From the NCBI RefSeq assembly GCF_017348835.2, contig NZ_CP071375.1: a DNA stretch of 64,000 nucleotides, one strand, 5' to 3'. A program made the translations under genes and the position numbers. Positions 2,160 to 60,319 of this stretch are shown here, in pieces. Source of the DNA: Escherichia coli. Lineage in GTDB: Bacteria > Pseudomonadota > Gammaproteobacteria > Enterobacterales > Enterobacteriaceae. The notes under the pieces were generated by a model. The model did no database searches. It saw only the letters and a list, made by a program, of their open reading frames with translations, and was not told where the DNA came from. The stretch's first letter is position 1. Every line of letters begins with the position of its first letter.

Positions 2160-2723
2160 TTATAGATATTGAACCTTGAAGGTCGCATCTGCGTTTGCAG
2201 TACCAGCTACGGACTGCCCGAGTGCAATATAACGAGCCTGGAACGGCAGTATATTCGTGCCATCAATCAAGTCAGTTTTAGCGCTAAAAGTGGCACCATC
2301 AAGTATTAATACCTCACCCGTACGGTCCAAAATTTGGATACCGACATTTTGGGCAGAGCCTGCCGCTGAACTCTGCAGCGCTAACGTATCGTCATTACTG
2401 GTGACAGTAGTACCCAGGAATGCAACAGCTGCATTACTGGAAACATTGGTATCACAATCATTCAGCTTGATATTGAAGCCAACGGCGGAGCTGAGGTCAC
2501 CCGCTTTAGCCAGGCGAGAAGAACGAACCTGACCCAGCTCAACCGTTTGGTTCATTGATTCTGAATCAATCGCACAAGCGGCATTTACCACTTCACCTTT
2601 AAAATGAATAACACCGCCATTAACAGTGGTCGTTACTGATTCATCACCCTCGCCTGCGCTTACCGCAGCAGACGACATCGCCAACACAGAAACGACAATC
2701 ATACCAACATGTTTGAGTTTCAT
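2160..2723 (-). CDS. Major fimbrial subunit (FimA-like pilin)
   Basis: ORF with signal peptide [23 protein letters not shown], Cys pair and C-terminal FKVQYL pilin motif; GGAG ribosome-binding site upstream of ATG at 2723. Confidence 0.8.
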
Positions 2724-3156
2724 AATTCTCCAAAATTTATATTTAAGTAGCTGAATAAAGAGAGTTAACAATTAAGTCATTCTGTTATTGCTTATAAAAC
2801 AAGAATCATTCTTGATTGGTTGTTGCCCTGAGAATATAGTTTCCAGGATTATTACATTTCACGAAGAACGAGAATATCTTTAAATCACAAGGACACCTAA
2901 TCACAACAAGTTTATTGCTGCACTTGTTGAAGAGAGTATTTGCAAAAATATTTTATGTCGCTAAATAACATAACGATTTCATTATGCATGTTATTTATAA
3001 ACCGTGACTAAACAGAATATTATTGCGAACAAGGGAAGTGTCAGGAAAGGTCAAGGGCTACTAATGGTTTATATGGCTATAAATCATTAGCTATAGTTAA
3101 TGTTTGCCTGGTGTAACTAACACCGAATTGCTCTAAACAGATAAGTGCAGGGTTTA

Positions 3157-3411
3157 TTAAAGCTGACCGACAGACTTTCTTAACCTGGTAATATCTCTCT
3201 TAGGTGACTCTCCAAACATCTGCAAATATTCCCGGCGGAAATGGGATAAGCTTTCGTAACCGACAGCATAGGCTGCTGTGGTGACATCGTAATGTTCATT
3301 CAGCATCGTTCGCCTGACTTCATTGAGACGTAGCCATTTCTGATACCGGAGTGGACTCATTCCCGCAAGCTGCCTGAAGTGTTGATGGAAAGAGGGCGTG
3401 CTCATTTGCAC
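3157..3411 (-). pseudogene. yneL: AraC-family regulator fragment (C-terminal HTH only), yneL-like
   Basis: 84-aa ORF carries only the second AraC helix-turn-helix; the overlapping 3320..3577 ORF in another frame does not look like HTH1, so the gene appears truncated or frameshifted. Confidence 0.45.
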
Positions 3412-4117
3412 GCGGTTTGCCAGCTTGAGTCTTCAACGCTGGGAAGATGCGGCAAACGGCAAATCGGCATACCAGCCAGCCTATATCCGTCATGCACAGG
3501 CCAATTATGAAAGAGGAGAGGCTTAAGTTCTGGAACCCTGAACGAATAACGAGCACCGGAAAATCACTTCGTATCACTCAGATGCTATTTAACATAATAT
3601 ACATTATGCGCACCAATATAAACCAAGGGAGAATCTAGTCGTTGGCGGTCATGATTGTCCTGCTCATTAACAACGACCAAACCCCATATCTTACTCTTAC
3701 TTAATACCGTATTCCCGGCTTAACCGACCGTGCAACCTCAACACATTGGTTTCAACTGCCGTCACCACGTTCTCTGGAAAATCTGTCGGTAATGAAGTCT
3801 TCACGTTATCCAGTGCTGCCGGAATCATTCTGGCAAAGTCACTCAGGATTTCATGCATCTGCACTTCCGGGAATCTCAGCACCTTTGCTGTCGCCAAAAA
3901 ATGTCGCGGATAAATTTTATCGATTGCCGTTTTTTTGCCTTTGGATGCGTTAAGCCCCATTGCCAGTTTGAGATCGCTGATGTGTATTCCCGCGCCACCC
4001 AATACCGGAAATGCTGAAATGATGTCGTAAAATGGCGTGAGTCGATAACTGCCGCCAGCCTGAATAAATACGGAGAAGTTTTTTGCATGGCCATCCGTTG
4101 CGCCAATCAGTTCGCTG

Positions 4118-4547
4118 CATACCGGTCCGACCCCGTACTGCTCACGCAGCTTATCCAGCAGTGGCATTATTTTTTCCAGAGGCGGTCGAACTCCGCCTTC
4201 GCAAAATAAGCGGAAGCCTGGCGAAGGATATCGTTACTGCGGCGCAGTTCACGATTTTCACGTTCCAGCTCTTTCAGACGCTGACGTTCAGCGGTGGTGA
4301 GTCCACCATCACCACTCCCGGTATCCCGCTCATGCTGGCGAACCCAGACACGCAGAGTCTCCGGCGTACAGCCAATCTTTGGGGCAATGGAACAAATTGC
4401 CGCCCACTGTGAGTCATATTCATCCTGACTTTCCAGAACCATACGAATCGCCCGCTGACGGACTTCGGGGGAAAAACGAGTATTTTTAGTCATCCTGTTT
4501 ACCTCTTTCTCAGGGAGTTTAGTCTCCAGGATTTCCGGGGCGGTTCA
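4118..4547 (-). mobile_element. Truncated IS3-family element (IS629/IS1203-like): terminal repeat, complete orfA, first ~20 codons of orfB
   Basis: Bases 4118..4547 match the full copy at 56514..57823 (same end sequence, ending ggggcggttca); identity stops at 4118 inside orfB. Confidence 0.8.
4167..4493 (-). CDS. IS629-like transposase OrfA
   Basis: 108-aa ORF ([19 protein letters not shown]...), identical to the orfA at 57443..57769. Confidence 0.85.
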
Positions 4548-4841
4548 CAACGCTGTCTCGCCCTATTTCTGACAATAAATCAAACGGTTGTCTGGATTTG
4601 GCATGATAACGTTTAACGATCCGGTCACGTACAATCGGGCTATCGGGTAACAAGTTATCGAAGAAGTTAAATACGGCATCAGAGGTGATATTCCCCCTCT
4701 GCAATGGCAGCGAAAGTGACAACGGTCTGGCATAACGGCTGGCTAACCACTCCGGTGCATACTTAAAGGTGTGCGCGCCGTTGGCTAACTTCGTTAACTC
4801 GCCTACCCGCTGGTTGTTCATCCAAGTGACTAGTTTGGGCA

Positions 4842-33376: not shown

Positions 33377-33772
33377 TTATTCTGAGGCAAAGGCATAGCC
33401 TTCATCTTCCCAGCCGGTTATCCCGCCGAGCATGATTTTAACCGGCTTTCCGAGTCGAGCCAGTTTGAGTGCCGCACGGTCTGCACCGTTACAATGTGGC
33501 CCCGCGCAATACACCACAAATAGCGTATCGTCGGGCCATTCGGCCATTCTTTCTGCGGTCATTTGCTTATGGGGTAAATGGAGAGCGCCTGGGATATGCC
33601 GACGCGCGAAGTCCTCTTCACGTCCAACCACATGAAGTAAAACGAAATCATCGCCAATATAAGCCAGAGAGTCATGAACATCGGCGCAATCTGTTTCGAC
33701 ACTCAAGCGCGCGAGAAAATGCGCCTCAGCAACTTCTGGCTTCGCTGTGGTAAATTCAGTGACATAACGCAT
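33377..33772 (-). CDS. Rhodanese-domain protein (putative sulfurtransferase)
   Basis: 131-aa ORF with a rhodanese active-site Cys loop (VVYCAGPHCNGA). Confidence 0.7.
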   Translation of the reverse strand: MRYVTEFTTAKPEVAEAHFLARLSVETDCADVHDSLAYIGDDFVLLHVVGREEDFARRHIPGALHLPHKQMTAERMAEWPDDTLFVVYCAGPHCNGADRAALKLARLGKPVKIMLGGITGWEDEGYAFASE

Positions 33773-33845
33773 ATTGCTTTGTCCTTTTGGTTTGTTGTGT
33801 TAACAATAATGTAACTAATCTACCTTTCACTGACCGCCTCTCGAT

Positions 33846-34838
33846 ATGCCAGAAATGAGCAAAATGATGACAACGTTACAACGTCCGCTGGTCATTGCAC
33901 TGGCATATGACGGGCTATGTACTTTTGAATTTGGCGTTGCCGTTGAAATATTCGGCCTGCCACGACCGGAACTGGGCGATAATTGGTATCGTTTTGCTGT
34001 TGCTGCGGTAGAACCTGGTGCGCTACAAGCCACCGGGGGGATCCACGTGGTTGCAGATGGTGGACTGGAGTTATTGCCCAACGCCGATATGATTATTATT
34101 CCTGGCTGGCGCGGAATAGATGCCAAAGTGCCGGAGATGCTATGCCAGTCATTGCGCGAGGCACACCAGCGCGGTACTCGCCTGGTATCAATATGCTCTG
34201 GCGTGTTTGTCCTTGCTGCTGCGGGCCTTCTTCATCAGCGAAAAGCAACCACCCACTGGCGCTACACTGAACAACTCCAGCACCGTTACCCTTCAATCAG
34301 CGTAAGTGACAATGTGTTATATCAGGATGAAGGACAAGTGATGACCTCCGCCGGAAGCGCCGCGGGGATCGATCTGTGTTTACATATCGTGCGCAAAGAT
34401 TTTGGTCATGAGATTGCTAATAATGTCGCCCGGCGACTGGTCATTCAGCCACATCGCCAGGGGGATCAACCACAAAATCTGACGCGCCCAATGGCCTCAC
34501 CGCGTGAAAGCCAGACGTTAGGTGCCTTATTCGACTTTTTGCAGCAGAATCTGGCACAAACACATACTGTGTCTTCCCTCGCCGAACGGGTAAATATGAG
34601 TCCGCGCACTTTTTTAAGACGTTTTGAGGCGTTAACTGGCATGACGCCCGCCCGCTGGCTGCTCAATGAGCGCTTAATACGAGTACAGGATTATCTGCAA
34701 AATTCGGTTTTTAACATCGAGAAAATTGCCGAGCTGACGGGTTTTGGCAATTCAGCGTTATTGCGTCATCACTTTCACCAACGTTTTTTATTATCTCCTT
34801 CGCAATATCGCAAAAACAGCCGTTCCCCATCACAATAA
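33846..34838 (+). CDS. GlxA/FtrA-like regulator: DJ-1/PfpI domain fused to AraC HTH
   Basis: 330-aa ORF; N-terminal DJ-1/PfpI-like fold with nucleophile-elbow Cys (ICSGVFVLAAAG), C-terminal AraC double HTH. Divergent from the rhodanese gene. Confidence 0.75.
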   Translation: MPEMSKMMTTLQRPLVIALAYDGLCTFEFGVAVEIFGLPRPELGDNWYRFAVAAVEPGALQATGGIHVVADGGLELLPNADMIIIPGWRGIDAKVPEMLCQSLREAHQRGTRLVSICSGVFVLAAAGLLHQRKATTHWRYTEQLQHRYPSISVSDNVLYQDEGQVMTSAGSAAGIDLCLHIVRKDFGHEIANNVARRLVIQPHRQGDQPQNLTRPMASPRESQTLGALFDFLQQNLAQTHTVSSLAERVNMSPRTFLRRFEALTGMTPARWLLNERLIRVQDYLQNSVFNIEKIAELTGFGNSALLRHHFHQRFLLSPSQYRKNSRSPSQ

Positions 34839-34945
34839 TCGCCTGATTCAGCCTTTGTTTAGATAACCTCTGCTAATATCTTTCTCATTGAGATGAAAAT
34901 TAAGGTAAGCGAGGAAACACACCACACCATAAACGGAGGCAAATA

Positions 34946-35041
34946 ATGCTGGGTAATATGAATGTTTTTATGGCCGTACTGGGAATAATTTTATTTTCTG
35001 GTTTTCTGGCCGCGTATTTCAGCCACAAATGGGATGACTAA
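34946..35041 (+). CDS. mgtS: Small membrane protein MgtS (31 aa)
   Basis: ATG at 34946 after GGAGG; translation MLGNMNVFMAVLGIILFSGFLAAYFSHKWDD; below the ORF-track size cutoff. Confidence 0.85.
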   Translation: MLGNMNVFMAVLGIILFSGFLAAYFSHKWDD

Positions 35042-35068
35042 TGAACGGAGATAATCCCTCACCTAACC

Positions 35069-35107
35069 GGCCCCTTGTTACAGTTGTGTACAAGGGGCCT
35101 GATTTTT
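35069..35107 (+). terminator. Intrinsic terminator after mgtS
   Basis: GGCCCCTTGT-tacagttgtgt-ACAAGGGGCC hairpin followed by tgattttt. Confidence 0.75.
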
Positions 35108-35116
35108 ATGACGGCG

Positions 35117-35218
35117 AAAAAAAACCGCCAGTAAACCGGCGGTGAATGCTTGCATGGATAGATTTGTGTTTTGCTTTTACGCTAACAGGCATTTTCCTGC
35201 ACTGATAACGGATCGTTG
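35117..35218 (-). ncRNA. mgrR: PhoP-dependent small RNA MgrR (approximate ends)
   Basis: Minus-strand terminator (ccgccggtttactggcgg + T8, + coords 35117-35142) about 100 nt downstream of a perfect PhoP box; matches the known mgtS-dgcZ intergenic location of mgrR. 5' end estimated. Confidence 0.55.
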
Positions 35219-35247
35219 ACACAGTAGCATCAGTTTTCTCAATGAAT

Positions 35248-35265
35248 GTTAAACGGAGCTTAAAC
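35248..35265 (-). promoter_or_regulatory. PhoP box (GTTTAA-N5-GTTTAA direct repeat)
   Basis: Minus-strand GTTTAAGCTCCGTTTAAC; overlaps the dgcZ stop codon and lies upstream of the inferred mgrR start. Confidence 0.7.
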
Positions 35266-36150
35266 TCGGTTAATCACATTTTGTTCGTCAATAAACATGC
35301 AGCGATTTCTTCCGGTTTGCTTACCCTCATACATTGCCCGGTCTGCTCTTCCAATGACCACATCCAGAGGCTCTTCAGGAAATGCGCGACTCACACCTGC
35401 TGTCACGGTAATGTTGATATGCCCTTCAGAATGTGTGATGGCATGGTTATCGACTAACTGGCAAATTCTGACACCTGCACGACATGCTTCTTCATCATTA
35501 GCCGCTTTAACAATAATGATAAATTCTTCGCCCCCGTAGCGATAAACCGTTTCGTAATCACGCGTCCAACTGGCTAAGTAAGTTGCCAGGGTGCGTAATA
35601 CTACATCGCCGATTAAATGCCCGTAGGTATCATTAACCAATTTAAATCGGTCAATATCCAACAACATTAAATAAAGATTCAGAGGATCAGTGTTGCGTAA
35701 CTGATGATCAAAGGATTCATCAAGAACCCGACGCCCCGGCAATCCCGTCAAAACATCCATATTGCTACGGATCGTCAGCAAATAAATTTTGTAATCGGTT
35801 AATGCCGCAGTAAAAGAAAGCAACCCCTCCTGAAAGGAGTCGAAATGCGCGTCCTGCCAGTGATTTTCAACAATAGCCAGCATTAATTCCCGACCACAGT
35901 TATGCATATGTTGATGGGCAGAATCCATTAGCCGAACGTAAGGTAATTCATCGTTATCGAGTGGCCCCAGATGATCAATCCACCGACCAAACTGGCACAG
36001 TCCATAAGAATGGTTATCCGTTATTTCTGGCTTACTGGCATCTCTCGCGACCACGCTGTGAAACATACTCACCAGCCACTGGTAGTGGGCATCGATAGCC
36101 TTATTGAGATTTAACAAGATGGCATCAATTTCCGTTGTCTTCTTGATCAT
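35260..36150 (-). CDS. dgcZ: Zinc-sensing diguanylate cyclase
   Basis: ORF with N-terminal CZB domain and C-terminal GGEEF; start MIKKTTEIDAIL. Confidence 0.9.
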   Translation of the reverse strand: MIKKTTEIDAILLNLNKAIDAHYQWLVSMFHSVVARDASKPEITDNHSYGLCQFGRWIDHLGPLDNDELPYVRLMDSAHQHMHNCGRELMLAIVENHWQDAHFDSFQEGLLSFTAALTDYKIYLLTIRSNMDVLTGLPGRRVLDESFDHQLRNTDPLNLYLMLLDIDRFKLVNDTYGHLIGDVVLRTLATYLASWTRDYETVYRYGGEEFIIIVKAANDEEACRAGVRICQLVDNHAITHSEGHINITVTAGVSRAFPEEPLDVVIGRADRAMYEGKQTGRNRCMFIDEQNVINRV

Positions 36151-46612: not shown

Positions 46613-47188
46613 CTACGGCAGTGCTGGCCATTCAATATCCTGTGCAGTTGACGTATCAACACGGTTCAGCAATACCCGATACTTTTTCCATGCTTCCAGC
46701 AACGAGATTTCTTCCTCCGTTGCAATTTCCAGATCTGCAGCATCCTGAAGCGGCGCAATATGCTCACTGGCTACCTGCATCAGGCTGTTTTTTGTTTCTT
46801 CCGCCTCCCGGATCCGGAACAGTTTTTCTGCTTCCGTATCCTTCACCCAGGCTGTGCCGTTCCACTTCTGATATTCCCCTCCCGGCGATAACCAGGTAAC
46901 ATTTTCCGGTAACGGACCGAGTTCAGAAATAAATAACGCGTCGCCGGAAGCCACGTCATAAACCGTTTTACCCCGATGATCTTCAACGAGATGCCACGAT
47001 GCCTCATCACTGTTGAAAACAGCCACGAAGCCTGCCGGAATATCTGGCGGTGCAATATCGATACTGTTTGCTGGCAGACCTGTATGAGGCGGAATATATG
47101 CGTCACCTTCACCAATAAATTCATTAGTTCCGGCCAGCAGATTATAAATTTTTATGGTCCGTGGTTGTTCACTCATTCTGAATGCCAT
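46613..47188 (-). CDS. tfaQ: Tail fibre assembly protein
   Basis: 191-aa Tfa-like ORF directly downstream of the tail-fibre C-terminus. Confidence 0.8.
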
Positions 47189-48741
47189 TATGCAAGCCTC
47201 ACAATATAGTTAAATGCGATGTTTTTGACGGTGTTTTCCGCGTTACCAGCAGCGTTAACGGTGATGGTATGTCCATGTGAACCAATCGCAACGGAGTGCG
47301 TATGAGCACCAATACCGACAGTATGTGCGTGTGCACCTGCGCTTGCAGCAGTACCCGATACAGAGTGCGTATGAGCGCCTGCAGAAGAAGTGTTAACACT
47401 GTATTTAGAGTAATCAGGTGATCCACTTCCCGGAGCACCACTGGAACCACCTGAAACAAATGTCATCGAATGGGTATGTGCACCGGCTGAAGCAGCCGTA
47501 CCGCTAACACTATGGGTATGCGCACCAGTGTTATTCGTGGATTTAGTGCCGTAATCAAACGACGATGTGGTTTTCGTCCCCAAATCCGTACTGGATACGC
47601 TGGCGCTGTGGGTGTGTGATTTAATGCCGTCCTGTTCCTGAGACAATACGGCTCGATCACTGGCGGGCTTGCCCTTAATCGTCCAGCCACGCATATCCCC
47701 TTTCGTTTTCATCCAGTCTTTGACAATCTGCACCCAGGTGGTGAACGGGCTGTACGCTGTCCAGATGTGAAAGGTCACACTGTCAGGTGGCTCAATCTCT
47801 TCACCGGATGACGAAAACCAGAGAATGCCATCACGGGTCCAGATCCCGGTCTTTTCGCAGATATAACGGGCATCAGTAAAGTCCAGCTCCTGCTGGCGGA
47901 TGACGCAGGCATTATGCTCGCAGAGATAAAACACGCTGGAGGGGTCATCCGGCGTCCATTTGAGGCCAAACGGCGTCTCTTTGTCGCCAAATTTAAGATA
48001 CTGCTCCTCCCCGCAGTGCGGGCAGGCAACATGAAAACGCATAAAATGCGGGGATTCACTGGCTGCACGCTCAATCTGGCAGGTGCCTCTCACTTTGGGC
48101 GTGGAGCCACGGATGGACTTTGGCCAGACCGAGCCTTCAATACGTTTGTCGCCAAGGAACGTCGGAGAGCCTTCCTGTTCAATATCCTCATCAAAGGCAG
48201 CAAGTTCATCATAACCCGCCACATCCACCGACTTTTCACGGTAGTTTTTTGCCGCTTTACCGCCCAGGCACCAGAAGCCACGACCATTGGAAAAACGCTT
48301 CATAGTGAGCGTGTTATCCCGGTGCTTTTTGCCATACCACGGAGCCAGCGCCAGCAGCGACGGAATATCGCGGATGGTCGGCTCAACGTGGGTTTTCATA
48401 AAGTTCTCGGCATCACCATCCGTCGGCAACCAGATAAGTGTGTTGCGCTGCTTATGCTCTATAAAGTAGACATAAACACCCAGCAGCATTTTGGAATAAC
48501 CGACACGGGCAGACTTCACCACATTCACCTCACGGATGTAGTCGCTGCCCATCGCATTCATGATGGCCCGCTGAAAGGGCAGTGTTTCCCAGCGCCCTTC
48601 CTGGTATGCGGATTCTTTCGGGAGATAGTAATTAGCATCCGCCCATTCAACGGCGGTCTGTGGCTCCGGCCTGAACAGTGAGCGAAGCCCGGCGCGGACA
48701 AAATGCCGCAGCCTGTTAACCTGACTGTTCGATATATTCAC
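47188..48741 (-). pseudogene. stfQ: In-frame fusion: lambda gpA-like large terminase N-terminal ~350 aa (47694..48741) joined to a side tail fibre C-terminus (47188..47693)
   Basis: ORF starts [23 protein letters not shown]... (lambda A) to ...[10 protein letters not shown], then switches to His-rich tail-fibre sequence ([20 protein letters not shown]...). Confidence 0.8.
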
Positions 48742-49261
48742 TCAGCAACCCCGGTATCAGTTCATCCAGCGCGGCTGCTTTGTTCATGGCTTTGATGATA
48801 TCCCGTTTCAGGAAATCAACATGTCGGTTTTCCAGTTCCGGAAAACGCCGCTGCACCGACAGGGGGATCCCGTCGAGAATACTGGCAATTTCACCTGCGA
48901 TCCGCGACAGCACGAAAGTACAGAATGCGGTTTCCACCACTTCAGCGGAGTCTCTGGCATTTTTCAGTTCCTGTGCGTCGGCCTGCGCACGCGTAAGTCG
49001 ATGGCGTTCGTACTCAATAGTCCCTGGCTGGAGATCTGTCTCGCTGGCCTGCCGCAGTTCTTCAACTTCCCGGCGCAGCTTTTCGTTCTCAATTTCAGCA
49101 TCCCTTTCGGCATACCATCTTATAACGGCGGCAGAGTCATAAAGCACCTCATTACCCTTGCCACCGCCTCGCAGAACGGGCATTCCCTGTTCCTGCCAGT
49201 TCTGAATGGTACGGATACTCGCACCGAAAATGTCAGCCAGCTGCTTTTTGTTGACTTCCAT
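48716..49261 (-). CDS. nohA: Terminase small subunit (lambda Nu1 homologue)
   Basis: 181-aa [45 protein letters not shown]...; overlaps the A start as in lambda. Confidence 0.9.
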
Positions 49262-49450
49262 TGTTCATTCCACGGACAAAAACAGAGAAAGGAAACGACA
49301 GAGGCCAAAAAGCCCGTTTTCAGCACCTGTCGTTTCCTTTCTTTTCAGAGGGTATTTTAAATAAAAACATTAAGTTATGACGAAGAAGAACGGAAACGCC
49401 TTAAACCGGAAAATTTTCATAAATAGCGAAAACCCGCGAGGTCGCCGCCC
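49262..49450 (-). other. Lambda-type cos site: cosN 12-nt cohesive end at 49439..49450, cosB region between cosN and nohA
   Basis: Minus strand reads CCGACAGGTTACG-GGGCGGCGACCT-CGCGGGTTTTCGCTATTTATGAAAATTTTCCGGTTTAAGG, the lambda end junction, then a lambda-like region up to the Nu1 start. Confidence 0.85.
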
Positions 49451-49649
49451 CGTAACCTGTCGGATCACCGGAAAGGACCCGTAAAGTGATAATGATTATC
49501 ATCTACATATCACAACGTGCGTGGAGGCCATCAAACCACGTCAAATAATCAATTATGACGCAGGTATCGTATTAATTGATCTGCATCAACTTAACGTAAA
49601 AACAACTTCAGACAATACAAATCAGCGACACTGAATACAGGGCAACCTC

Positions 49650-49844
49650 ATGTCAACGAAGAACAGAACCCGCAGAACAACAACCCGCAACATCCGCTTT
49701 CCTAACCAAATGATTGAACAAATTAACATCGCTCTTGATCAAAAAGGGTCCGGGAATTTCTCAGCCTGGGTCATTGAAGCCTGCCGCCGGAGACTAACGT
49801 CAGAAAAGAGAGCATATACATCAATCCAGAGTGATGATGGATGA
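49650..49844 (+). CDS. Small prophage protein, YlcI/YnfO-like
   Basis: 64-aa basic ORF immediately beyond cos. Confidence 0.5.
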   Translation: MSTKNRTRRTTTRNIRFPNQMIEQINIALDQKGSGNFSAWVIEACRRRLTSEKRAYTSIQSDDG

Positions 49845-50094
49845 ACATCCCGGTTTCTTTACCTTCCCTCCCTCCCCGCACAGAACTGGCGAGCGTGAGG
49901 GACCAATATGTGAGCCATAAATGCCTTATCTTCAGAAATGCAGTTGGTATCCGAACAGGACGATATTGTAAATTCACCTAAATACGAGGCATTGCTGTAG
50001 TTGAATTGCAGTACTGTATTAGCCTGACAGTGACAGAATACGATATTGACTCTGTCACTTGTGAAATGGTCAGAATGGTTAGCAGTTATGGTGA

Positions 50095-50301
50095 TCAGTC
50101 AACCAACAGGGAATAATCCTTCGTATTCTTATCGTGCTTTACTAACGCGGCCTCAATTGCCCTGAATGCTTCCAGAGATACTTGATGTTCTATACATGCA
50201 ATTACAACATCCGGGTAACCCATCGAAATGGTGCTATTAAGCATAGTTTTTACACGAACCTGCTCCTGGGAGGGGGCATCAATGTATTGATCTTTATGCA
50301 T
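50095..50301 (-). CDS. Hypothetical prophage protein
   Basis: 68-aa ORF; function unknown. Confidence 0.4.
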
Positions 50302-50596
50302 TTTGTCGCTCCATTCGTTTGCTCTTCACTTGCGGCTAAAAATATAACGTCAAATCACTCAGCATGAAAGAGTGAAAGTTTCAGCGCGTTTCCCTTACAT
50401 AATCTGTCGTTTGTATTCTCTTCAGGCATACCGGAAAGACTAGGTATTGTCACACAACCAATACCATCGACAATCGAGATTTATATCTATTCGGTAATGT
50501 TTAAATATAACAAAACCCCGTAAAAACGAGGTTTATGGGTAATTTGTATTGTTGAATAGCATCTGATGAGAAATTGATGCTAATACTATAAACATG

Positions 50597-50770
50597 CTAG
50601 ATTAAATCAATCTTGATATCATAGCTTTCAAGACCAGTCATTTTTTCCCGTGCAGTAAACTGGATACTGGTAACTTCTTTCCCGGTCTTTTTCTTAAGCT
50701 CAATGATTTTTTTTGTTATATATTCAGAAATATCTGCTTCTGTTTTTGTTTTTAACTCTTCAATGTTCAT
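50597..50770 (-). CDS. gnsB: GnsA/GnsB-family protein
   Basis: 57-aa ORF MNIEELKTKTEADISEYITKKIIELKKKTGKEV...ESYDIKIDLI; GAGG ribosome-binding site. Confidence 0.7.
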   Translation of the reverse strand: MNIEELKTKTEADISEYITKKIIELKKKTGKEVTSIQFTAREKMTGLESYDIKIDLI

Positions 50771-50942
50771 CATTTCCTCTTTTAGTCTGTTATGACTGTC
50801 CTGGTACACAGTAGTGTCAATTATATGGAGCAAACGTATAAAAGATAAGATGAAACATCGCAATAATCAACATACGACGGTCTAAATTTCACACAAACAG
50901 ATAAAAATGATTATCATTTATTATCAATGCATTAGAATCAAA

Positions 50943-51173
50943 TCAATTCAAGAGTCTCATTGCTGCTTCCAGAATTTCTTCTGAAGTTACATGTCGATCC
51001 GCTGCTACATAAATGACTTTATGATCTCCGGTCAGAGATGGAAACCCTGCAGCCATTACAGTGAGGTGTGTTGTTTCGCCATTTGGATATTCACGCATGA
51101 TGGTGTTAACTCCGGTCATCACTGGCACTACCATTGCTGGTTCAGAGTTAAAAAAAACTATTATTTTTTTCAT
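50943..51173 (-). CDS. Small prophage protein (YnfN-like); start codon uncertain
   Basis: ORF 50943..51212 with several possible in-frame starts. Confidence 0.4.
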   Translation of the reverse strand: MKKIIVFFNSEPAMVVPVMTGVNTIMREYPNGETTHLTVMAAGFPSLTGDHKVIYVAADRHVTSEEILEAAMRLLN

Positions 51174-51444
51174 AATGTTACCGTAATATGTGAGTATCCA
51201 TCGACTAGACACTAAGCAAAAAAGCTCCCGAAGGAGCCTTCATTTTCACTTTCTTAAATCTAACGACAGATGGCTAACATTTAAGTATTGTGAAATATTA
51301 TCAAATGTAATCATCATTGATTTACAAAAGATACATTTTGCCCCGAAAGGATTTCTGTCAGAAACATCAAAAGATGATGTTCTATACTGAGAACCATGGC
51401 AACACGGGCATCTAAAGTGAATATGGTTTGTAATATTTTCTACC

Positions 51445-51657
51445 TCAAAGTGCCACTACATGAACAGCTGCAGGGCCTTTAGGTCCGTTCTCAATACCAA
51501 ATTCGACTTCCTGATTCTCAGTTAACGTTTTGAAATCGTTGCTCTGAATAGCTGAGAAATGCACAAACACATCTTTGCTACCATCTTTCGGCGTGATGAA
51601 ACCAAAACCTTTTTCAGGGTTAAACCATTTCACTAAACCAGTCATTTTGTTAGACAT
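51445..51657 (-). CDS. cspI: Cold-shock protein
   Basis: 70-aa cold-shock-domain ORF ([21 protein letters not shown]...). Confidence 0.9.
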
Positions 51658-52020
51658 CATTATTACCTTTTGAAGAAGTTAGCCCTTGGGCAGAATGGTC
51701 CGAAAAAAAATATCAGAGAGAAAAACCAACAAGGAAATCTCAAGAGGTACAAATAATAAAATTATAACAATGACTGCTTCAGATAATTTTGTAACAAACC
51801 AGAACACCATTAACGCATGATTAACCAACCATAGCAAGGATTACTTTTGTAAAGAAAAACACACGAATGAAACAATAGCTTTATTTATTAATAAAACGTG
51901 TCATTCTGTCTAATGACCTTTTATCTTACCCTTAAGATTTCAAGGATTTTGACTCATGGAAGAGTCCTTTTTATTTAAATTTCACATTCAGCGCTAAAAA
52001 TAATCCGATTTAATATTAAT

Positions 52021-53050
<1,030 letters not shown>

Positions 53051-53163
53051 GGATATTTATCAGGATTTATCGGCTTCAAATCCCCGGATATGTTAAATCT
53101 TACCTCACCAGTGATGGGCACTGGCGGGAGGAGGATGTCAATCTGATAAACACAGAGGTGACT

Positions 53164-53424
53164 ATGGATTACACAAATCTACCAAAACAAACTTTTGCTG
53201 ATTTAATCGCACTCAGGCAAGCAGTCGTAGCTCTAATCAACTTGTTGCCGGAGAAGGAAAAGGAATTAGTTAAAGCGCTTCTTAACAGAACTGCCGCCGA
53301 TTTTTCATCATATCCACTGACAGATGACCTTGCGGACCTTCCTGAATTAATTGCAGCGTCCGCCATTAAGCTTACTGAAGAGATTTACCCTCCTCAAAAA
53401 TCTTCACAAAATTCCTGCGAGTAA
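53164..53424 (+). CDS. Hypothetical acidic protein on the opposite strand inside the lysis cassette
   Basis: 86-aa ORF from ATG at 53164, preceded by AGAGG at 53153-53157; helical acidic sequence; no homologue recognised. Confidence 0.4.
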   Translation: MDYTNLPKQTFADLIALRQAVVALINLLPEKEKELVKALLNRTAADFSSYPLTDDLADLPELIAASAIKLTEEIYPPQKSSQNSCE

Positions 53425-53923
53425 CTTCAATGCAATAATCGTAAAACGCCGCAAACTGCTCATCGCGGCGTTTTTTTTCATCTTCAGAAGGAATCAGCAC
53501 CGACAATTTTTTATTCAGATCAGCGACGCTGCCCTCCAGTTTTTCAATGGGCGATTCAATATCATCTTTTTCTGACCGCAATGCCGTCGGTGGCGTCTTC
53601 AGAGAACCAGTAATTCTTCCCGGTAGCTTTCCTTTGTAGGTTATCCACACATTCTGCGCCTCTAAAATTATGGGGCGCTTTTCCGGCGACTGCTCATCCC
53701 CTTCACATAACCCGGCAGCAACATCCAGGAAGACCTGTCTGATGCTCATTCTGGCTGCTGCCTCATAAAACTCCAGCGCGGCACCTTCAACACGGTCCAG
53801 CGAGATGTCCAGGTCAAAAATTTCACCGTCAAAGCGTTCTTTGTCCTGTAATGCTAAAGTTACCGTAACTTTATTCTCAAAATTGCGGATCCCTTTCACA
53901 ATCAGTTCATAGTTTTGAGTCAT
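53372..53923 (-). CDS. Prophage protein between holin and endolysin (YdfR-like position)
   Basis: 183-aa ORF; same position as K-12 ydfR, but that gene is recalled as shorter. Confidence 0.5.
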   Translation of the reverse strand: MTQNYELIVKGIRNFENKVTVTLALQDKERFDGEIFDLDISLDRVEGAALEFYEAAARMSIRQVFLDVAAGLCEGDEQSPEKRPIILEAQNVWITYKGKLPGRITGSLKTPPTALRSEKDDIESPIEKLEGSVADLNKKLSVLIPSEDEKKRRDEQFAAFYDYCIEVTRRNFVKIFEEGKSLQ

Positions 53924-53927
53924 TGAA

Positions 53928-54143
53928 TTACTCTCCTCTCGCAGCCTTACGCCTGTCTTCTTTAATCTTGAAATAAAGATTTGTCAGATACGTCAGCAGG
54001 CCAAAAACCAGGCTACCCAGCACACCGATTGCAGCCCACTGTGACGGAGTTACTTTATCGAGTAACTGCAATGCCCAGAAACCAGCATTACCCGCCGATG
54101 TGCCATAGGCAACACCTGTTGTTAACTTATCCATTGATTTCAT
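53928..54143 (-). CDS. essQ: Holin (phage-21 S-type pinholin-like)
   Basis: [71 protein letters not shown]; two TM helices and a charged C-terminus. Confidence 0.85.
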
Positions 54144-54363
54144 ATCCTCACCCCGATGTACACGGATGGTGCAATATGTTTGAAAAGATCGGAGTCTACG
54201 GGGTAGTTTTGACAGCACACGTTGTTCTCAACGGCGCTAAAGAAACATACACATTAAAAATGTGAGTAATTATTTTTTAAAGAAAGTCATATATAAAATA
54301 ATAATACGAGAAATGTTTTCATATTTAGTGTACTGTATACGGCCATTTATACAGGAAAAGCCT

Positions 54364-54534
54364 ATGTCAGAACGTAAAGACTCAAAATCACGCCGTAATT
54401 ATCTCGTTAAATGTTCCTGCCCAAACTGCACCCAAGAGTCAGAACACAGTTTTTCAAGAGTACAAAAAGGTGCCCTTTTGATCTGCCCTCATTGCAACAA
54501 AGTATTCCAGACAAATCTTAAAGCTGTAGCCTGA
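54364..54534 (+). CDS. Small zinc-ribbon protein (56 aa, two CxxC pairs)
   Basis: MSERKDSKSRRNYLVKCSCPNCTQESEHSFSRVQKGALLICPHCNKVFQTNLKAVA; ribosome-binding site AGGAAAAG. Confidence 0.55.
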   Translation: MSERKDSKSRRNYLVKCSCPNCTQESEHSFSRVQKGALLICPHCNKVFQTNLKAVA

Positions 54535-54593
54535 TTGATTTTATTAGTAACAAGTATTTTTTATATTTTAATAATATATTTAAAGCAGATAAT

Positions 54594-54617
54594 AAAAAAC
54601 CCGCCTGAGCGGGTTTG
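54594..54617. terminator. Bidirectional intrinsic terminator
   Basis: A-run + CCCGC-ctga-GCGGG + ttt. Confidence 0.7.
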
Positions 54618-54897
54618 AGATTGTGGTGCTTTTTGTGGGAGTCATCCACTTACGCACTTTGTTTTGCCATGCCAGCAGTTAGCTTCTGCTGTAAAACTAT
54701 TCATGCAGCAAACCTGCACTTCACCACAATGGTTAGCATACTTTTCCTGATTAAGATTTTGCCAAATATGCTGGCCATTGTTTCATGTATTGGACCTCCT
54801 TAATTTTCATTAAAGAGATCCAATATTCACTACTCTGTCCGTATCTCTACTCAGGCATCAGCCTTCTTCGTTATCGTATACAGACGAGCGATGAATT

Positions 54898-55113
54898 TTA
54901 ATCAGTAATGATGACATTTGCTGCTGCAGGACCTTTAGCACCACTCTCTATAGAGAAGGTAACCTTTTGACCTTCAAATAAGGTTCGATAATTATCATTC
55001 TGAATCGCAGAAAAATGCACAAACACATCTTTACTACCATCAACAGGAGAAATAAAGCCGAAACCTTTATCAGCGTTAAACCATTTTACTAAACCAGTCA
55101 TTTTATTTGACAT
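54898..55113 (-). CDS. cspB: Cold-shock protein
   Basis: 71-aa cold-shock-domain ORF. Confidence 0.9.
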
Positions 55114-55411
55114 TCTACATTCCTTAACTTGAGCCTTTCGGCATAAATGGTTTGCATAACAGAAACGACTTCGTACTTAATTGGAGAGACTCAAAGAAGG
55201 AATAAGTGAATAACACCTGAAATGAGAACTGCTTTAGTAAACTACTTCGTATATCGTCTGTTCTTCAAACCGACGCAGTCATTAACTCATAGTTGAACAT
55301 ATGAAGCAATGTTTATTTTAGACATCCAGCCACCTTCAACCCTATCAAAAAAGTAGTTTTCTCCAGGAACGTGTGTATGGTGCACCAGGTTATCAGTATT
55401 AAGGAGTTTTT

Positions 55412-55625
55412 CTGTCCCCTAAAATGACAGGAATTGTCAAAAACTTTGACTACAAAAGCAGCAAAGGTCTTATATTCCCATCCGATGGCGTATCGATGCC
55501 CAGCTTCACGTTTCAGCTCTCAATCTTCGAGATGCAGAAGAAATTACCACAGGATTACGCGTGGAATTTTGCCGGATAAATGGTTCGCGTGGACCTTCAA
55601 CTGCCAATGTTTATCCCGGGATGAG
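55412..55625 (+). pseudogene. cspF: cspF/cspH-like cold-shock gene with a frameshift
   Basis: N-terminal MTGIVKNFD...PSDG is in one frame; the rest ([42 protein letters not shown]) is in another frame that runs on to 55950. Confidence 0.45.
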
Positions 55626-55656
55626 ATTCAATATCTCTATTGCCCCATTTAAAGCA

Positions 55657-55690
55657 CAAAAACCCGCTTATAAGCGGGTTTTCTACTTTT
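55657..55690 (+). terminator. Intrinsic terminator
   Basis: aaaaa-CCCGC-ttataa-GCGGG-tttt. Confidence 0.7.
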
Positions 55691-55788
55691 TTCTAAACGT
55701 CGGATACACAAAGCCCATCGTTGAGAAAATCTTATCCATGTTTTTTGAAAAATGCAAACATCATGTCGCCATCTTCAGCAAAAATCAT

Positions 55789-56513
55789 TTATCTCGTCAC
55801 CTTCCTCAATTGCGCTTCCGCGTATGCTTCTTCCTGCCAGCACTTTGTTACCAGTTTACCAATGACGTCAGCATACCCCTTATACCACTGATAATCGGTC
55901 AGGTCTGGTACCAGCTTCTGGACATGACGTCGTGCCAGCGTGGTCGGTAAACGACTAAACCGGTTTCCATTACAACGCCCACAAATCTTATATACCGGTA
56001 CGCCATGAAACCGGGTTCTTTTTTCATCCAGAACAATCCCTTTACCCTTACACCCTCTGCACGCTGTGCTGACTTCGCCCTTACCATGGCAATGCTGACA
56101 TAGTTCCTTTACCCATTCTTCCTTGATTACAGATTCCCCGCGTCTGTAGTGTTTCACCACTTCGCGCAATACATTATAAAATCCCGTACCTGAACAATGC
56201 TCACAGCGAGCCTTACTTGCCGCAGACCTAGAGTAATCAGCAAAGGCAAAATTCACGAGGTAAGGAATAATCTGTAACCGGATTTCTTCACTCAATTTGT
56301 TCAATGTCGGGTTATCCAGTGCCATCGCGTAATTTAGCAGGCCTTCAATCGCAAACTGAGGGTCCTGAACACCAACTTTTGCCAGAAATAAGGCCAACCC
56401 AAGTGGTGCTTTCGACTGCACCATCCCCTGCGCTGCCATTACATCCGTAATTGTTAAACAACCGGTGCCTGTCGCTGGAGCGTCATCGCTCAATTTTGGA
56501 GATTTTGGGGAGT
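55789..56513 (-). CDS. quuQ: Late-gene antiterminator Q-like protein with four CxxCxGxG zinc motifs; 5' end removed by IS629
   Basis: 234-aa ORF starts at TTG 20 bp from the IS end; frame is open right up to the IS boundary at 56514. Sits upstream of the cold-shock morons and lysis genes. Confidence 0.6.
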
Positions 56514-56555
56514 TGAACCGCCCCGGGTTTCCTGGAGAGTGTTTTATCTGTGAAC

Positions 56556-57443
56556 TCAGGCTGCCAGATCATTATTTCCGATGGAAGCATAATAAGCTTT
56601 TTCTGCTTCTGCCGGAGGAATATGGCCCAGCCTTTCCAGCAATCGTCGATTGTTATACCAGTCCACCCACGTTAGTGTGGCCAGTTCCACTTCTGTCCGG
56701 TTTTTCCAGCTCTTACGGTGTATTACCTCCGCTTTGTAAAGACCATTGATGCTCTCAGCCATCGCGTTGTCATACGAGTCGCCAGTACTCCCTGTTGATG
56801 CCAGTAATCCGGCTTCCTTAAGCCGCTGCGTGTAGGCCAGCGATACATACTGAGAACCTTTATCACTGTGATGGATTGTGCCGGACGGCCGACGGGCCCA
56901 CAACGCCTGCTCCAGTGCATCCAGCACGAATGTTGTTTCCATGGATGATGAGACCTGCCATCCCACGATGTATCCGGCGAACACATCAATGATGAACGCC
57001 ACATAAACGAAGCCCTGCCATGTGCTTACCCAGGTAAAATCAGCCACCCACAACTGGTCTGGACGTTCTGCCACGAACTGACGGTTTACGCGGTCGCATG
57101 CGGCAACGGCTTTCCGGCTGACGGTAGTGCGGACCTTTTTACCCCGGAGAACACCGGCAAGTCCCATAACTGCCATGAGACGTGCCACAGTGCATCTGGC
57201 CACTCTGATACCTTCCCGTAACAACTGACGCCAGACTTTACGCACACCGTATACCTGGTGATTTTCATCGTATACGCGCTGTATCTCTTTCTTCAGCCAG
57301 TCATCGTGCTGCGCACGGGCACTGCGTTTATCCGGATGATGTCGCTGTTGCTGACAATGGTAATACGTTGACGGGGCAATATGCAGTTCGCTGCATACCG
57401 GTCCGACCCCGTACTGCTCACGCAGCTTATCCAGCAGTGGCAT
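56556..57443 (-). CDS. IS629-like transposase OrfB (DDE); expected to be made as an OrfAB fusion by -1 frameshift
   Basis: 295-aa ORF; A-rich slippery stretch (GGAAAAAATAATG) at the orfA/orfB overlap. Confidence 0.9.
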   Translation of the reverse strand: MPLLDKLREQYGVGPVCSELHIAPSTYYHCQQQRHHPDKRSARAQHDDWLKKEIQRVYDENHQVYGVRKVWRQLLREGIRVARCTVARLMAVMGLAGVLRGKKVRTTVSRKAVAACDRVNRQFVAERPDQLWVADFTWVSTWQGFVYVAFIIDVFAGYIVGWQVSSSMETTFVLDALEQALWARRPSGTIHHSDKGSQYVSLAYTQRLKEAGLLASTGSTGDSYDNAMAESINGLYKAEVIHRKSWKNRTEVELATLTWVDWYNNRRLLERLGHIPPAEAEKAYYASIGNNDLAA

Positions 57444-57769
57444 TATTTTTTCCAGAGGCGGTCGAACTCCGCCTTCGCAAAATAAGCGGAAGCCTGGCGA
57501 AGGATATCGTTACTGCGGCGCAGTTCACGATTTTCACGTTCCAGCTCTTTCAGACGCTGACGTTCAGCGGTGGTGAGTCCACCATCACCACTCCCGGTAT
57601 CCCGCTCATGCTGGCGAACCCAGACACGCAGAGTCTCCGGCGTACAGCCAATCTTTGGGGCAATGGAACAAATTGCCGCCCACTGTGAGTCATATTCATC
57701 CTGACTTTCCAGAACCATACGAATCGCCCGCTGACGGACTTCGGGGGAAAAACGAGTATTTTTAGTCAT
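57443..57769 (-). CDS. IS629-like transposase OrfA
   Basis: 108-aa ORF identical to 4167..4493. Confidence 0.9.
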
Positions 57770-57874
57770 CCTGTTTACCTCTTTCTCAGGGAGTTTAGTC
57801 TCCAGGATTTCCGGGGCGGTTCATTAAAGATTTTTTTGTGCATGCCGATAGTGCTTTTTTAAAAGGAGAAATCT

Positions 57875-58207
57875 ATGTCTGTCACAATTCAGGGAAATAC
57901 CTCAACCGTTATTTCAAACAACTCCGCCCCGGAAGGAACATCAGAAATAGCCAAAATCACAAGACAAATTCAGGTGCTGACTGAAAAGCTTGGGAAAATC
58001 TCATCGGAAGAGGGGATGACGACACAGCAGAAAAAAGAAATGGCTGCATTGGTACAGAAGCAAATTGAAAGCCTCAGGGCTCAACTGGAGCAGTTGTTAA
58101 GGCAGCAGGCAGAGAAAAAGAATGAAGACGCGACAGTTCAGCCTGATAAAAAAGAAGAGAAAAAAGACGATACAAATACCGCTGGCACCATTGATATTTA
58201 CGTCTAA
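57875..58207 (+). CDS. flxA: Prophage protein FlxA
   Basis: 110-aa ORF MSVTIQGNTSTVISNNSAPEGTSEIAKITRQIQVLTEKLG... with ribosome-binding site. Confidence 0.7.
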   Translation: MSVTIQGNTSTVISNNSAPEGTSEIAKITRQIQVLTEKLGKISSEEGMTTQQKKEMAALVQKQIESLRAQLEQLLRQQAEKKNEDATVQPDKKEEKKDDTNTAGTIDIYV

Positions 58208-58221
58208 GTGACAGCCGTATT

Positions 58222-58245
58222 GTGGCCCTCATCGGGCCACTTTTC
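58222..58245 (+). terminator. Intrinsic terminator after flxA
   Basis: GTGGCCC-tcatc-GGGCCAC-ttttc. Confidence 0.75.
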
Positions 58246-58643
58246 GCCATCAGCCTTTTCTTTAAAGACATATTATCTTTGTATCATTTCTGATAGTTAA
58301 CATTACAAGATATAAGTAATGGACGCACTCCCAATTAGTCTATTTAAATCGCCACGAGTTTAACTGACAACCCATGATCAATTATGAATTGCAACTATTT
58401 CTGTAGTCACTTTTGTGGGGACAGTCCACAAAACTGCCAACTTCCGCTTCTTGCTCTTAGCGGACATTAGCATAGGCTATTTACCATAACGCCTCATTAC
58501 GCGCACCGCCCAGACTGACTCAGCGCGTTTCTGGCATATCCCCGGTAAAACAAGTAACAAACCACCCGAAAATGAACACCAGAAACGCGACTTAAGAATC
58601 TACCCTATGAATGGATATGCACTCAACCGAATCGATCTTGGTT

Positions 58644-59985
58644 TCAATCTTTTTTATCGGGATCAGGCTTCTTTTTAGGTAACTTCGGGGGCTTAACTTG
58701 CTGATGACTTTGCGTTCGGCGCGTAAGCCAGGGATGGTCAGCTTTAGGTTTAACATAGTATTTTGAGCGTAAATCAATACGGGCATTATCCACTCGTTCA
58801 TGGACACTCTTTTCATCATCCAGTGGTATAGGCTCCGGGCCATCAACATACTTTTCCCAGCCCAGCGCTTTCCCGTCATACAGAACGTTAATTTCACCGT
58901 CAAAGTTCTCGCATACAGTAACAACCGAATGCCTAAGTCGATATCCCCGGCCCTCACTGCGTACCTGAAACGCACTGCTTTTGTACTGGAAAGTGAGATT
59001 TTTAGACAGAACGCGCTTCGCCTGTAGGCTGAAGATATAACCCAGTTCCTCTTCAGAATGGTGCACATCAAGATGAGCATTATCAGTAGTACGAGGCGAC
59101 GTAGCGAACCGGTTGTTATAGGCTTCAATAAAGGTCGGCAACCATGCATTTGCTGTTTCAATATCACTGATATTCTGAAGCCGCATTTCTTTGACCAGCC
59201 TGTCCTGTAGTGTCTGATTGGCGCGCTCTACCCGCCCTTTTGCCTGCGGGCTGTTGGCATGGATTGGCTCGATGCCCAGTGTCTTTATCGCACGAGTGAA
59301 CTGGGTCAGCTCACCTTCCCGCTCTGGGTTATTTACCCTGAATATACTGTGTCTATCAGAGTAGAGAGCGAGCGGTACGCCATGATCATTAAGGTAACCC
59401 CGGAGGGTTTCCATGTAAGCCCGGGTTGTTTCAGCAGGCACAAAACGCAACGCCATCAACGCACTGGTGGCATCATCAATGAAAACGATCAGTGTACATC
59501 TGGGGCCTCGATTTTCAAACCAGTCATGAGGTGAGCCATCAATCTGGATCAGTTCACCGTAAGATGGTCGTCGCATGCGGCGTTGATATATACGGGCAAT
59601 TTTACGACGGCGTTCACGCCATACCCCCCTCTTCTATCATCCACTTTCTGAGAGTTTCAACGGATAAAGATAAACCGTGTATCTCGCGCAATTTTTCGCA
59701 CGCAAACGTAGGTCCAAAATCAGCGTAACGGCCTTTGAGGAGTGAAATTACTGTTGCTCTGAATTCAGTAGAAAAGGAATTATTAGGACGCTTTCCACGT
59801 CGGTGGGAAACCAGACCAGAAGGCCCTTCATTTCTATACCGTTGCACCAGACGTTTAACCTGCCGAATAGAAATGCCAATGCGTGCCGCAGCTTGTTCCT
59901 GAGTAATATGTCGATTAATTGACTCCTGAATAATCTGAAGTCGGTGGAGTTCCTTATGACTCATCGTAACAGTTTCTTTGGTCAT
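58644..59985 (-). pseudogene. HTH + DDE (integrase-core) transposase split into two frames (IS481/ISNCY-like)
   Basis: N-terminal HTH ORF 59614..59985 and DDE ORF 58644..59576 are in different frames; a C7 run sits at the junction (59625-59631). Confidence 0.6.
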
Positions 59986-60319
59986 GAAAAATCCCCCAGA
60001 GAATTGTCTGGGGACATTTTAGAATGGTTCAAAGGGGACATTACAGCTTGGTGTTAACAATAGCCTGCTTCTCCTTGCCTTTCGGCACGTAAGAGGCTAA
60101 CCTACATGTGTCTGGCATGAAATTGGCCTCAGATTAATGTTAAGCGTCTTGCAGGACGCGTAATGTTAACTGGGGCTTTTCTCTACCTGCCGTTGGTGTT
60201 CGTGCCCGAGGCAGATAGCCTCAAGCACCCGCAGTCATTCTACTTAACTAAGATTTCCCCGCAAACCGTTTTTGTCCAGCACAGTAAATATCCAACTAAA
60301 CCAATGGAGTTCGCTGTAT

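Follow-up and report, generated by a model that had tools for sequence, protein, structure and literature searches.

Which sequence upstream of the small RNA gene mgrR would PhoP use to activate it, and does the convergent gene mgtS carry a PhoP box of its own? We addressed these questions in a 64,000-nucleotide stretch of the Escherichia coli contig NZ_CP071375.1, referred to here as the window, in which a preliminary description had pointed to a perfect direct repeat at the dgcZ stop codon as the PhoP box of mgrR. Low Mg2+ leads PhoQ to phosphorylate PhoP. Much about the locus is established: earlier publications cover mgrR, mgtS and mgtT, the dependence of these genes on PhoP, their convergent arrangement and an RNase III-dependent site where the 3' ends overlap. 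The sole new point, a minor refinement, is that the PhoP site conserved across relatives lies one half-site (11 bp) downstream of the flagged repeat.

The identity of the locus is, in our view, practically certain. Sequence comparison shows the 601 nt at 34800..35400 to be 100% identical to those of E. coli strain PE164, and 5416 of 5426 complete E. coli genomes contain matches of at least 95% to this interval, with ftrA, mgtS, mgtT and dgcZ as the annotated genes. The counterpart interval of K-12 MG1655 is annotated with mgtS (b4599), mgtT (b4775), the ncRNA gene mgrR (b4698, 1622817..1622914, minus strand) and dgcZ, so that the region can be called the E. coli mgtS-mgtT / mgrR locus. Both mgrR and yneM/mgtS are direct PhoP targets (PMC3536696), and their convergent, PhoQP-dependent transcription has been published. 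Likewise, PhoP dependence has been published for an mgrR-lacZ fusion and for MgrR on northern blots, loss of MgrR in a phoP deletion has already been reported for K-12, and accumulation of MgrR that depends on PhoP/PhoQ and Hfq has been published for K-12 and Salmonella.

The minus-strand small RNA had been proposed to be mgrR, and the mapping agrees: K-12 b4698 falls at 35117..35214 (minus strand; 98 nt, +1 = G35214), and the Rfam family RF01407 (STnc560 Hfq binding RNA, STnc560 being the Salmonella name for MgrR) matches with its full-length model at 35035..35248 on the same strand, scoring 281.9 bits against a gathering score of 55 (E = 1.8e-64). Alignment to the K-12 mgrR locus, suggested in the preliminary description as a check, gives 97 of 98 identical nucleotides, with mgtS/mgtT and dgcZ flanking the gene as in K-12; the single difference is at nt +4 (C here, U in K-12; window position 35211). 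The transcript had been placed at 35117-35225, of which the 3' end at 35117 holds, but the start is at G35214 according to the K-12 mapping.

The 98-nt RNA folds at -25.9 kcal/mol (z -2.9) into a 5' hairpin (nt 5-35), an unpaired A-rich stretch followed by the seed, and a terminator hairpin with U8, which by fold and terminator scan together is an Hfq-type architecture ending in an intrinsic terminator with a U-tail. Enzymatic probing of MgrR yielded the same structure, with a target-pairing region at U55-A68 (PMC6239178) that corresponds here to the seed UAUCCAUGCAAGCA (nt 55-68; 35147..35160, minus strand). The single-stranded, (ARN)5-like stretch occupies nt 36-54 (35161..35179, minus strand); this A-rich stretch of MgrR has been described as an Hfq distal-face motif, and the U-tail has been given a role in Hfq binding (PMC6239178). 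The strong minus-strand terminator reported earlier, a stem followed by T8, was recovered at 35143..35117, with a stem at 35143..35124 of 8 pairs (6 of them G-C) and the T8 run at 35124..35117.

Published targets repressed by MgrR in K-12 are eptB, ygdQ and pitA. A full-length duplex of MgrR with eptB gave a 90-nt pairing that was no better than that of shuffles and is meaningless. When the search was confined to the single-stranded region of MgrR, the published site was recovered, with nt 54-69 pairing to K-12 eptB at -7..+9 across the AUG at -17.6 kcal/mol, an energy equalled by 134 of 1000 shuffled seeds (13%); the pairing thus agrees with the published one but does not prove it. RNA polymerase would start at G35214 and stop at the hairpin and U8 (35143..35117) to give the 98-nt MgrR, which, as published for K-12, would be held by Hfq via its U-tail and A-rich stretch and would pair through nt 55-68 across the start codons of targets such as eptB, resulting in repression.

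How good a PhoP box is the flagged repeat? The sequence GTTTAAGCTCCGTTTAA lies at 35249-35265 on the minus strand, and direct reading of both strands over 34700-35500 confirms a perfect hexamer-N5-hexamer direct repeat, as had been claimed: the minus strand at 35265..35248 reads GTTTAA-GCTCC-GTTTAA-C. The last dgcZ codon (GTT) together with the stop codon TAA (35262..35260) makes up its first hexamer; the dgcZ (ydeH) coding sequence itself spans 35260..36150 on the minus strand, as shown by the ORF and by the RefSeq entry for the identical sequence in PE164. A search of the whole 64-kb window for GTTTAAN5GTTTAA gave this single exact match, with 0.02 expected from shuffles. Elsewhere in the window, a second gene with a diguanylate-cyclase domain is found at 21225..22643, which the annotation of the near-identical PE164 record gives as a pseudogene with an internal stop.

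The generic E. coli PhoP box is (T/G)GTTTA-N5-(T/G)GTTTA, two direct hexamers with a 5-nt spacer and at most two mismatches. Moved by one base into this register, the flagged repeat reads AGTTTA-agctc-CGTTTA (35250..35266, minus strand), which with +1 at 35214 is -52..-36, ending 23 nt from the -10 element. This is the position at which the mgrR PhoP site is recorded in the literature, by "consensus motif identification (Moon and Gottesman, 2009)" (PMC8313858), and the flagged repeat is therefore a rediscovery of the recorded site. In this register the match is 10/12 rather than perfect, because the first position of each hexamer is A or C instead of T or G. A full-text literature search with five box strings returned no match. 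We refer to the upstream hexamer AGTTTA (-52..-47; 35266..35261, minus strand), which falls on the dgcZ Val codon and stop, as HS1, to CGTTTA (-41..-36) as HS2, and to a further hexamer downstream, CATTGA (-30..-25), as HS3.

Motif resemblance as such says little in this window. With the relaxed pattern KGTTTA-N5-KGTTTA and up to two mismatches, 31 matches were counted against 19.8 expected, so that position and conservation have to carry the argument and not the motif match alone. It could accordingly be asked whether the flagged repeat is a chance juxtaposition, mgrR being either constitutive or transcribed by read-through from dgcZ. The abundance of relaxed matches and a perfect consensus match within hipA coding sequence (2998..3014) fit such a reading, and the terminator scan found no terminator between the dgcZ stop and the mgrR +1, which makes read-through into mgrR plausible. 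However, chance would yield the exact repeat just 0.02 times per window, PhoP dependence has been published both for mgrR-lacZ and for MgrR itself, and HS2 is invariant in the 77 distinct promoters, from more than 25 genera, among the matches listed. Altogether, chance is a very improbable explanation.

The perfect consensus in hipA, TGTTTAGTCACGGTTTA at 2998..3014 (minus strand), was rejected as a regulatory site: the hipA coding sequence around it is interrupted by an IS3-family element, and a match in such a coding remnant is most likely due to chance. By comparison with the near-identical PE164 annotation, the split hipA covers 2206..4841, with the element at approximately 3280..4492 and an ALIL pseudoknot at 4096..4212. 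At 46647..60230, the window contains Rfam matches typical of a Qin-like defective prophage, comprising IS009 (46647..46845), two cspA-type thermoregulator leaders (51399..51815 and 54882..55274), a second ALIL pseudoknot (57372..57488) that differs in position and orientation from PE164, and the sok antitoxin RNA (60059..60230). Given the placement of this second ALIL element, the window does not simply represent strain PE164.

Which of the half-sites have been kept during evolution? One genome per species was scanned for the MgrR seed followed by a T-run, and about 30 chance matches in unrelated taxa were removed by requiring a terminator. At least about 90 genuine homologs were obtained from more than 25 genera of Enterobacteriaceae, which include Escherichia, Salmonella, Citrobacter, Enterobacter, Klebsiella, Raoultella, Kluyvera, Kosakonia, Leclercia and Atlantibacter. 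In the window, the extended -10 element of mgrR, read from the sequence at 35221..35229 (minus strand), consists of TG at 35229..35228 and TACTGT at 35226..35221 (-12..-7); among the matches listed, 78 of the 90 homologs carry TGnTAnnnT in the same place. The 77 distinct promoters among the matches listed were anchored on TGnTAnnnT, and since a regular expression sets this anchor, the -10 positions are invariant by construction.

In the information-content profile of these 77 distinct promoters (among the matches listed), conservation starts abruptly at -42, and a block YYGTTTA-RC.TT-YRTTGA at -42..-25 is followed by a spacer fixed at 12 nt. Positions G-40, T-39, T-38, A-36, T-28 and T-27 are invariant in this set. 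Scored against KGTTTA, again for the 77 promoters among the matches listed, HS2 has a mean of 5.29/6 matches and HS3 of 3.62/6, with HS1 at the background value of 2.22/6 and other registers at 1.2-2.9/6. HS3 shows, in the same promoters among the matches listed, two invariant T's, a G and an A at 84-88%, and the fixed 12-nt distance. The layout does not hinge on the TG anchor: NGTTNA-N5-NNTTNA exactly 12 nt from NAnnnT was found in 78 of 90 distinct upstream regions among the matches listed and in none of 1800 shuffles.

The conserved box in E. coli is thus CGTTTA-acatt-CATTGA (HS2 and HS3; -41..-25; 35239..35255, minus strand), 12 nt from the -10, and the pair that has been evolutionarily kept, -41..-36 plus -30..-25, does not overlap the dgcZ stop. 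The box proposed over the stop codon therefore stands as the site recorded in the literature (cited in PMC8313858), but not as the conserved one. Among the matches listed, HS1 scores at least 5/6 only in E. coli and E. whittamii. The E. albertii promoter contains an extra 11-bp unit and no good HS1, with HS2 and HS3 kept, and in a species representative labelled E. coli (L027) HS1 is AGTTTT, which removes the dgcZ stop codon. Moreover, the same-strand gene upstream of mgrR varies by genus (dgcZ, dcp, a ~120-aa gene or a ~366-aa gene) and the conserved block is unchanged. As HS1 is under coding constraint from the dgcZ Val-stop, its presence needs no regulatory explanation.

Conservation favours HS2 and HS3 as a putative ancestral core, and this pair is probably the core PhoP site in E. 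coli mgrR as well. HS1 would then most likely be a third half-site in phase with these two and specific to the lineage, with an accessory role or there by coincidence, but outside the core. A point against this register is that HS2 and HS3 match the generic consensus at only 8/12, compared with 10/12 for HS1 and HS2; under the limit of two mismatches the flagged box and the mgtS box described below (each 10/12) qualify as PhoP boxes and the conserved mgrR pair does not. HS3 was also considered as a sigma-70 -35 element and discarded, as TTGAGA at -28..-23 leaves a spacer of only 10 bp to the -10. The promoter scan detected no sigma-70 -35/-10 promoter in 34700..35500, in keeping with activator-dependent promoters. 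As sequence and conservation suggest, PhoP~P would bind a direct-repeat box in place of a -35 element, with 12 nt between the end of the box and the -10 downstream, and for mgrR this minus-strand box would be CGTTTA-N5-CATTGA (35255..35239).

Could the working site in E. coli nonetheless be the recorded -52..-36 box, situated two helical turns upstream of the -10 as in rstA and ompX, and HS3 be kept for another reason? HS1 and HS2 form the best consensus match in the promoter at 10/12, the exact repeat is unique in the window, and the site is on record from Moon and Gottesman (2009), as cited in PMC8313858. Direct boxes at 21-23 nt are functional (PMC3335776), and the flagged register is for that reason mechanistically possible. 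We nevertheless consider it unlikely: HS1 is at background in homologs and falls short of 5/6 outside E. coli and E. whittamii among the matches listed, it has no good counterpart in E. albertii or L027, and it is explained by the dgcZ coding constraint. HS3, on the other hand, has the invariant T's, the conserved G and A and the fixed distance described above for the matches listed, and its spacing to the -10 prevents it from being a -35 element.

A further possibility, doubtful but a little easier to entertain, is that all three in-phase half-sites (AGTTTA, CGTTTA and CATTGA) are used, creating overlapping boxes at 12 and 23 nt with a higher PhoP~P occupancy than in relatives. The hexamers are phased at exactly 11 bp, K-12 mgtA also has a third in-phase hexamer upstream (GGGTAA), addition of a second upstream box increased the output of the phoP promoter (Zwir et al. 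2012, PMC3335776), and MgrR has been reported to be induced already at moderately low Mg2+ (PMC6239178). However, a PhoP dimer binds two half-sites, so that three half-sites do not amount to two complete, non-overlapping boxes, and dgcZ coding sequence alone explains HS1. We put forward only tentatively that the recorded -52..-36 box is a lineage-specific by-product of the dgcZ Val-stop, that the ancestral box is -41..-25, and that the resulting three-half-site array raises PhoP~P occupancy. If true, such an array could account for the induction of mgrR at only moderately low Mg2+.

The preliminary description did not assign a PhoP box to mgtS by eye, and we can now propose one. The mgtS (yneM) coding sequence at 34946..35041 (plus strand) is an ORF for 31 aa with the product MLGNMNVFMAVLGIILFSGFLAAYFSHKWDD, annotated as MgtS in PE164 and K-12 and identical to that of K-12. 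Upstream lies the proposed box GATTCAgccttTGTTTA, GATTCA-gcctt-TGTTTA (34845..34861, plus strand; 10/12), with a weak distal and a perfect proximal half-site, and 12 nt 3' of it a -10 hexamer TAATAT (34874..34879, plus strand) can be read from the sequence, which would place the transcription start at about 34886-34887. The layout RRTTCA-N5-TGTTTA, 12 nt, TAnnAT is present in 33 of 48 distinct mgtS upstream regions among the matches listed, against 7 of 1920 shuffles, and most of the other regions among the matches listed show a single-base deviation from it. Mean scores over the 48 upstream regions among the matches listed are 5.5/6 for the proximal and 3.6/6 for the distal half-site, and the T, A and final T of the -10 are conserved in the anchored alignment of the matches listed. 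Among the matches listed, the mgtS promoters of the Kluyvera group do not fit the 12-nt layout.

Convergence of mgtS with mgrR was observed in 49 of 93 homologous loci among the matches listed. Read in this manner, the mgrR and mgtS promoters would be mirror images, with the strong half-site distal in mgrR and proximal in mgtS, and the plus-strand box GATTCA-N5-TGTTTA (34845..34861) would drive mgtS-mgtT. The strain differs from K-12 in having ftrA and a rhodanese-like gene upstream of mgtS; these two genes occupy 33377..34838, between ydeE and mgtS, and are present in 381 of 5426 complete E. coli genomes, about 93% being without them. The K-12 homology breakpoint (~34846) abuts the distal half-site of the proposed mgtS box, which is GATTCA here and AATTCA in K-12.

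Taken as a whole, the region is very probably made up of two convergent PhoP-activated transcription units whose boxes share a 12-nt spacing to the -10. For annotation of the PhoP regulon this is a correction of detail: the top-scoring, recorded motif match of mgrR lies one half-site away from the box that shows conservation and canonical placement, and mgtS too would have a canonical box, although just one of its half-sites is obvious. In the assignment of response-regulator sites, conservation and the spacing from the -10 should count for more than the score of the motif.

At the other end of the operon, mgtT (34 aa; 35041..35145, plus strand; RefSeq annotation for PE164, K-12 b4775, and ORF) begins in the stop codon of mgtS (TAATG), and its co-transcription with mgtS and PhoQP dependence have been published. 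A separate mgtS terminator had been described here, and folding does reveal a strong hairpin at 35069..35099 with a U-run at 35103..35107 (35069..35107 in total, plus strand): a 13-pair stem is followed by UGAUUUUUAU, and the 115-nt region has a z-score of -3.9. The terminator scanner does not list this hairpin. It is located, however, inside the annotated mgtT ORF (codons 10-23), which the earlier reading had missed, and complete mgtT consequently needs read-through of the hairpin. Transcripts that read through would continue into mgrR in antisense orientation; the final 29 nt of mgtT (35117..35145) lie opposite the MgrR terminator and U-tail. In K-12, an RNase III-dependent site at 1622816 ('intergenic yneM-mgrR') has been attributed to sense/antisense overlap (PMC5371410); the position equals window 35116, one base past the MgrR 3' end and within the mgtT/mgrR antisense overlap, and antisense read-through into mgrR is consistent with it. 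In five Kluyvera loci, a gap of only ~10 nt separates the end of the mgtS coding sequence from the 3' end of mgrR (~80 nt in E. coli), too short for either an mgtT-like ORF or a separate terminator for mgtS.

For the majority of genera, as seen at four example loci and others, the start of the mgrR promoter lies within ~4-35 nt of a stop codon that ends a same-strand gene. The upstream genes are dgcZ, dcp, one for a ~120-aa protein ending in ...GLMRYLQINT... and one for a ~366-aa protein ending in ...LKALVEKL. In this respect mgrR behaves as a portable module parked at gene 3' ends. Enterobacteriaceae bacterium RIT691 has two mgrR-like copies, at 1399..1451 and 2992..3045 of its locus, ~1.6 kb apart; one is preceded by the conserved PhoP box and -10, and the other, with unrelated upstream sequence and no box, may be a paralog under different control. 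In a contig labelled 'MAG: Caldithrix sp.', the mgtS-mgrR region is identical to that of E. coli K-12, K-12-specific bases included, and is probably E. coli contamination of the metagenome bin.

How does the locus compare with known systems? It agrees with K-12 mgrR (b4698; Moon & Gottesman 2009) in position, 98-nt length, promoter, seed, A-rich stretch and terminator. MicL and DapZ are small RNAs transcribed from a promoter of their own, located at the 3' end of the preceding gene, whose terminator they share. Similarly, the mgrR promoter is within a few nt of, or overlaps, a same-strand stop codon, with no terminator between. Unlike for MicL and DapZ, however, the gene upstream is not the same in every genus, whereas the mgrR module stays constant, which indicates that MgrR is an independent gene and not a derivative of the 3' UTR of one mRNA.

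Among PhoP promoters, architecture I has a direct box 12 nt upstream of the -10 (mgtA, phoP, slyB, pmrD), and architecture III a direct box 21-23 nt upstream (rstA, ompX), both distances being functional (Zwir et al. 2012, PMC3335776). As controls, K-12 phoP (12/12), mgtA (12/12) and mgrB (10/12) each showed a box, exactly 12 nt and a -10-like hexamer. With architecture I, the conserved mgrR box and the proposed mgtS box share a single direct box at 12 nt and the lack of a -35 element; the distance is found for 35255..35239 and 34845..34861 and not for the flagged box (23 nt), and both mgrR half-sites are conserved in orthologous promoters (5.29/6 and 3.62/6, among the matches listed). They differ from it in that one half-site is degenerate, the proximal CATTGA in mgrR and the distal GATTCA in mgtS, and in the additional in-phase half-site one turn upstream in E. 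coli mgrR. The flagged box resembles architecture III in its direct orientation and distance class (23 nt). In contrast to architecture III, the space between this box and the -10 of mgrR holds a further conserved half-site, so that the promoter fits architecture I as well, and the upstream half-site of the flagged box lacks conservation in orthologous mgrR promoters.
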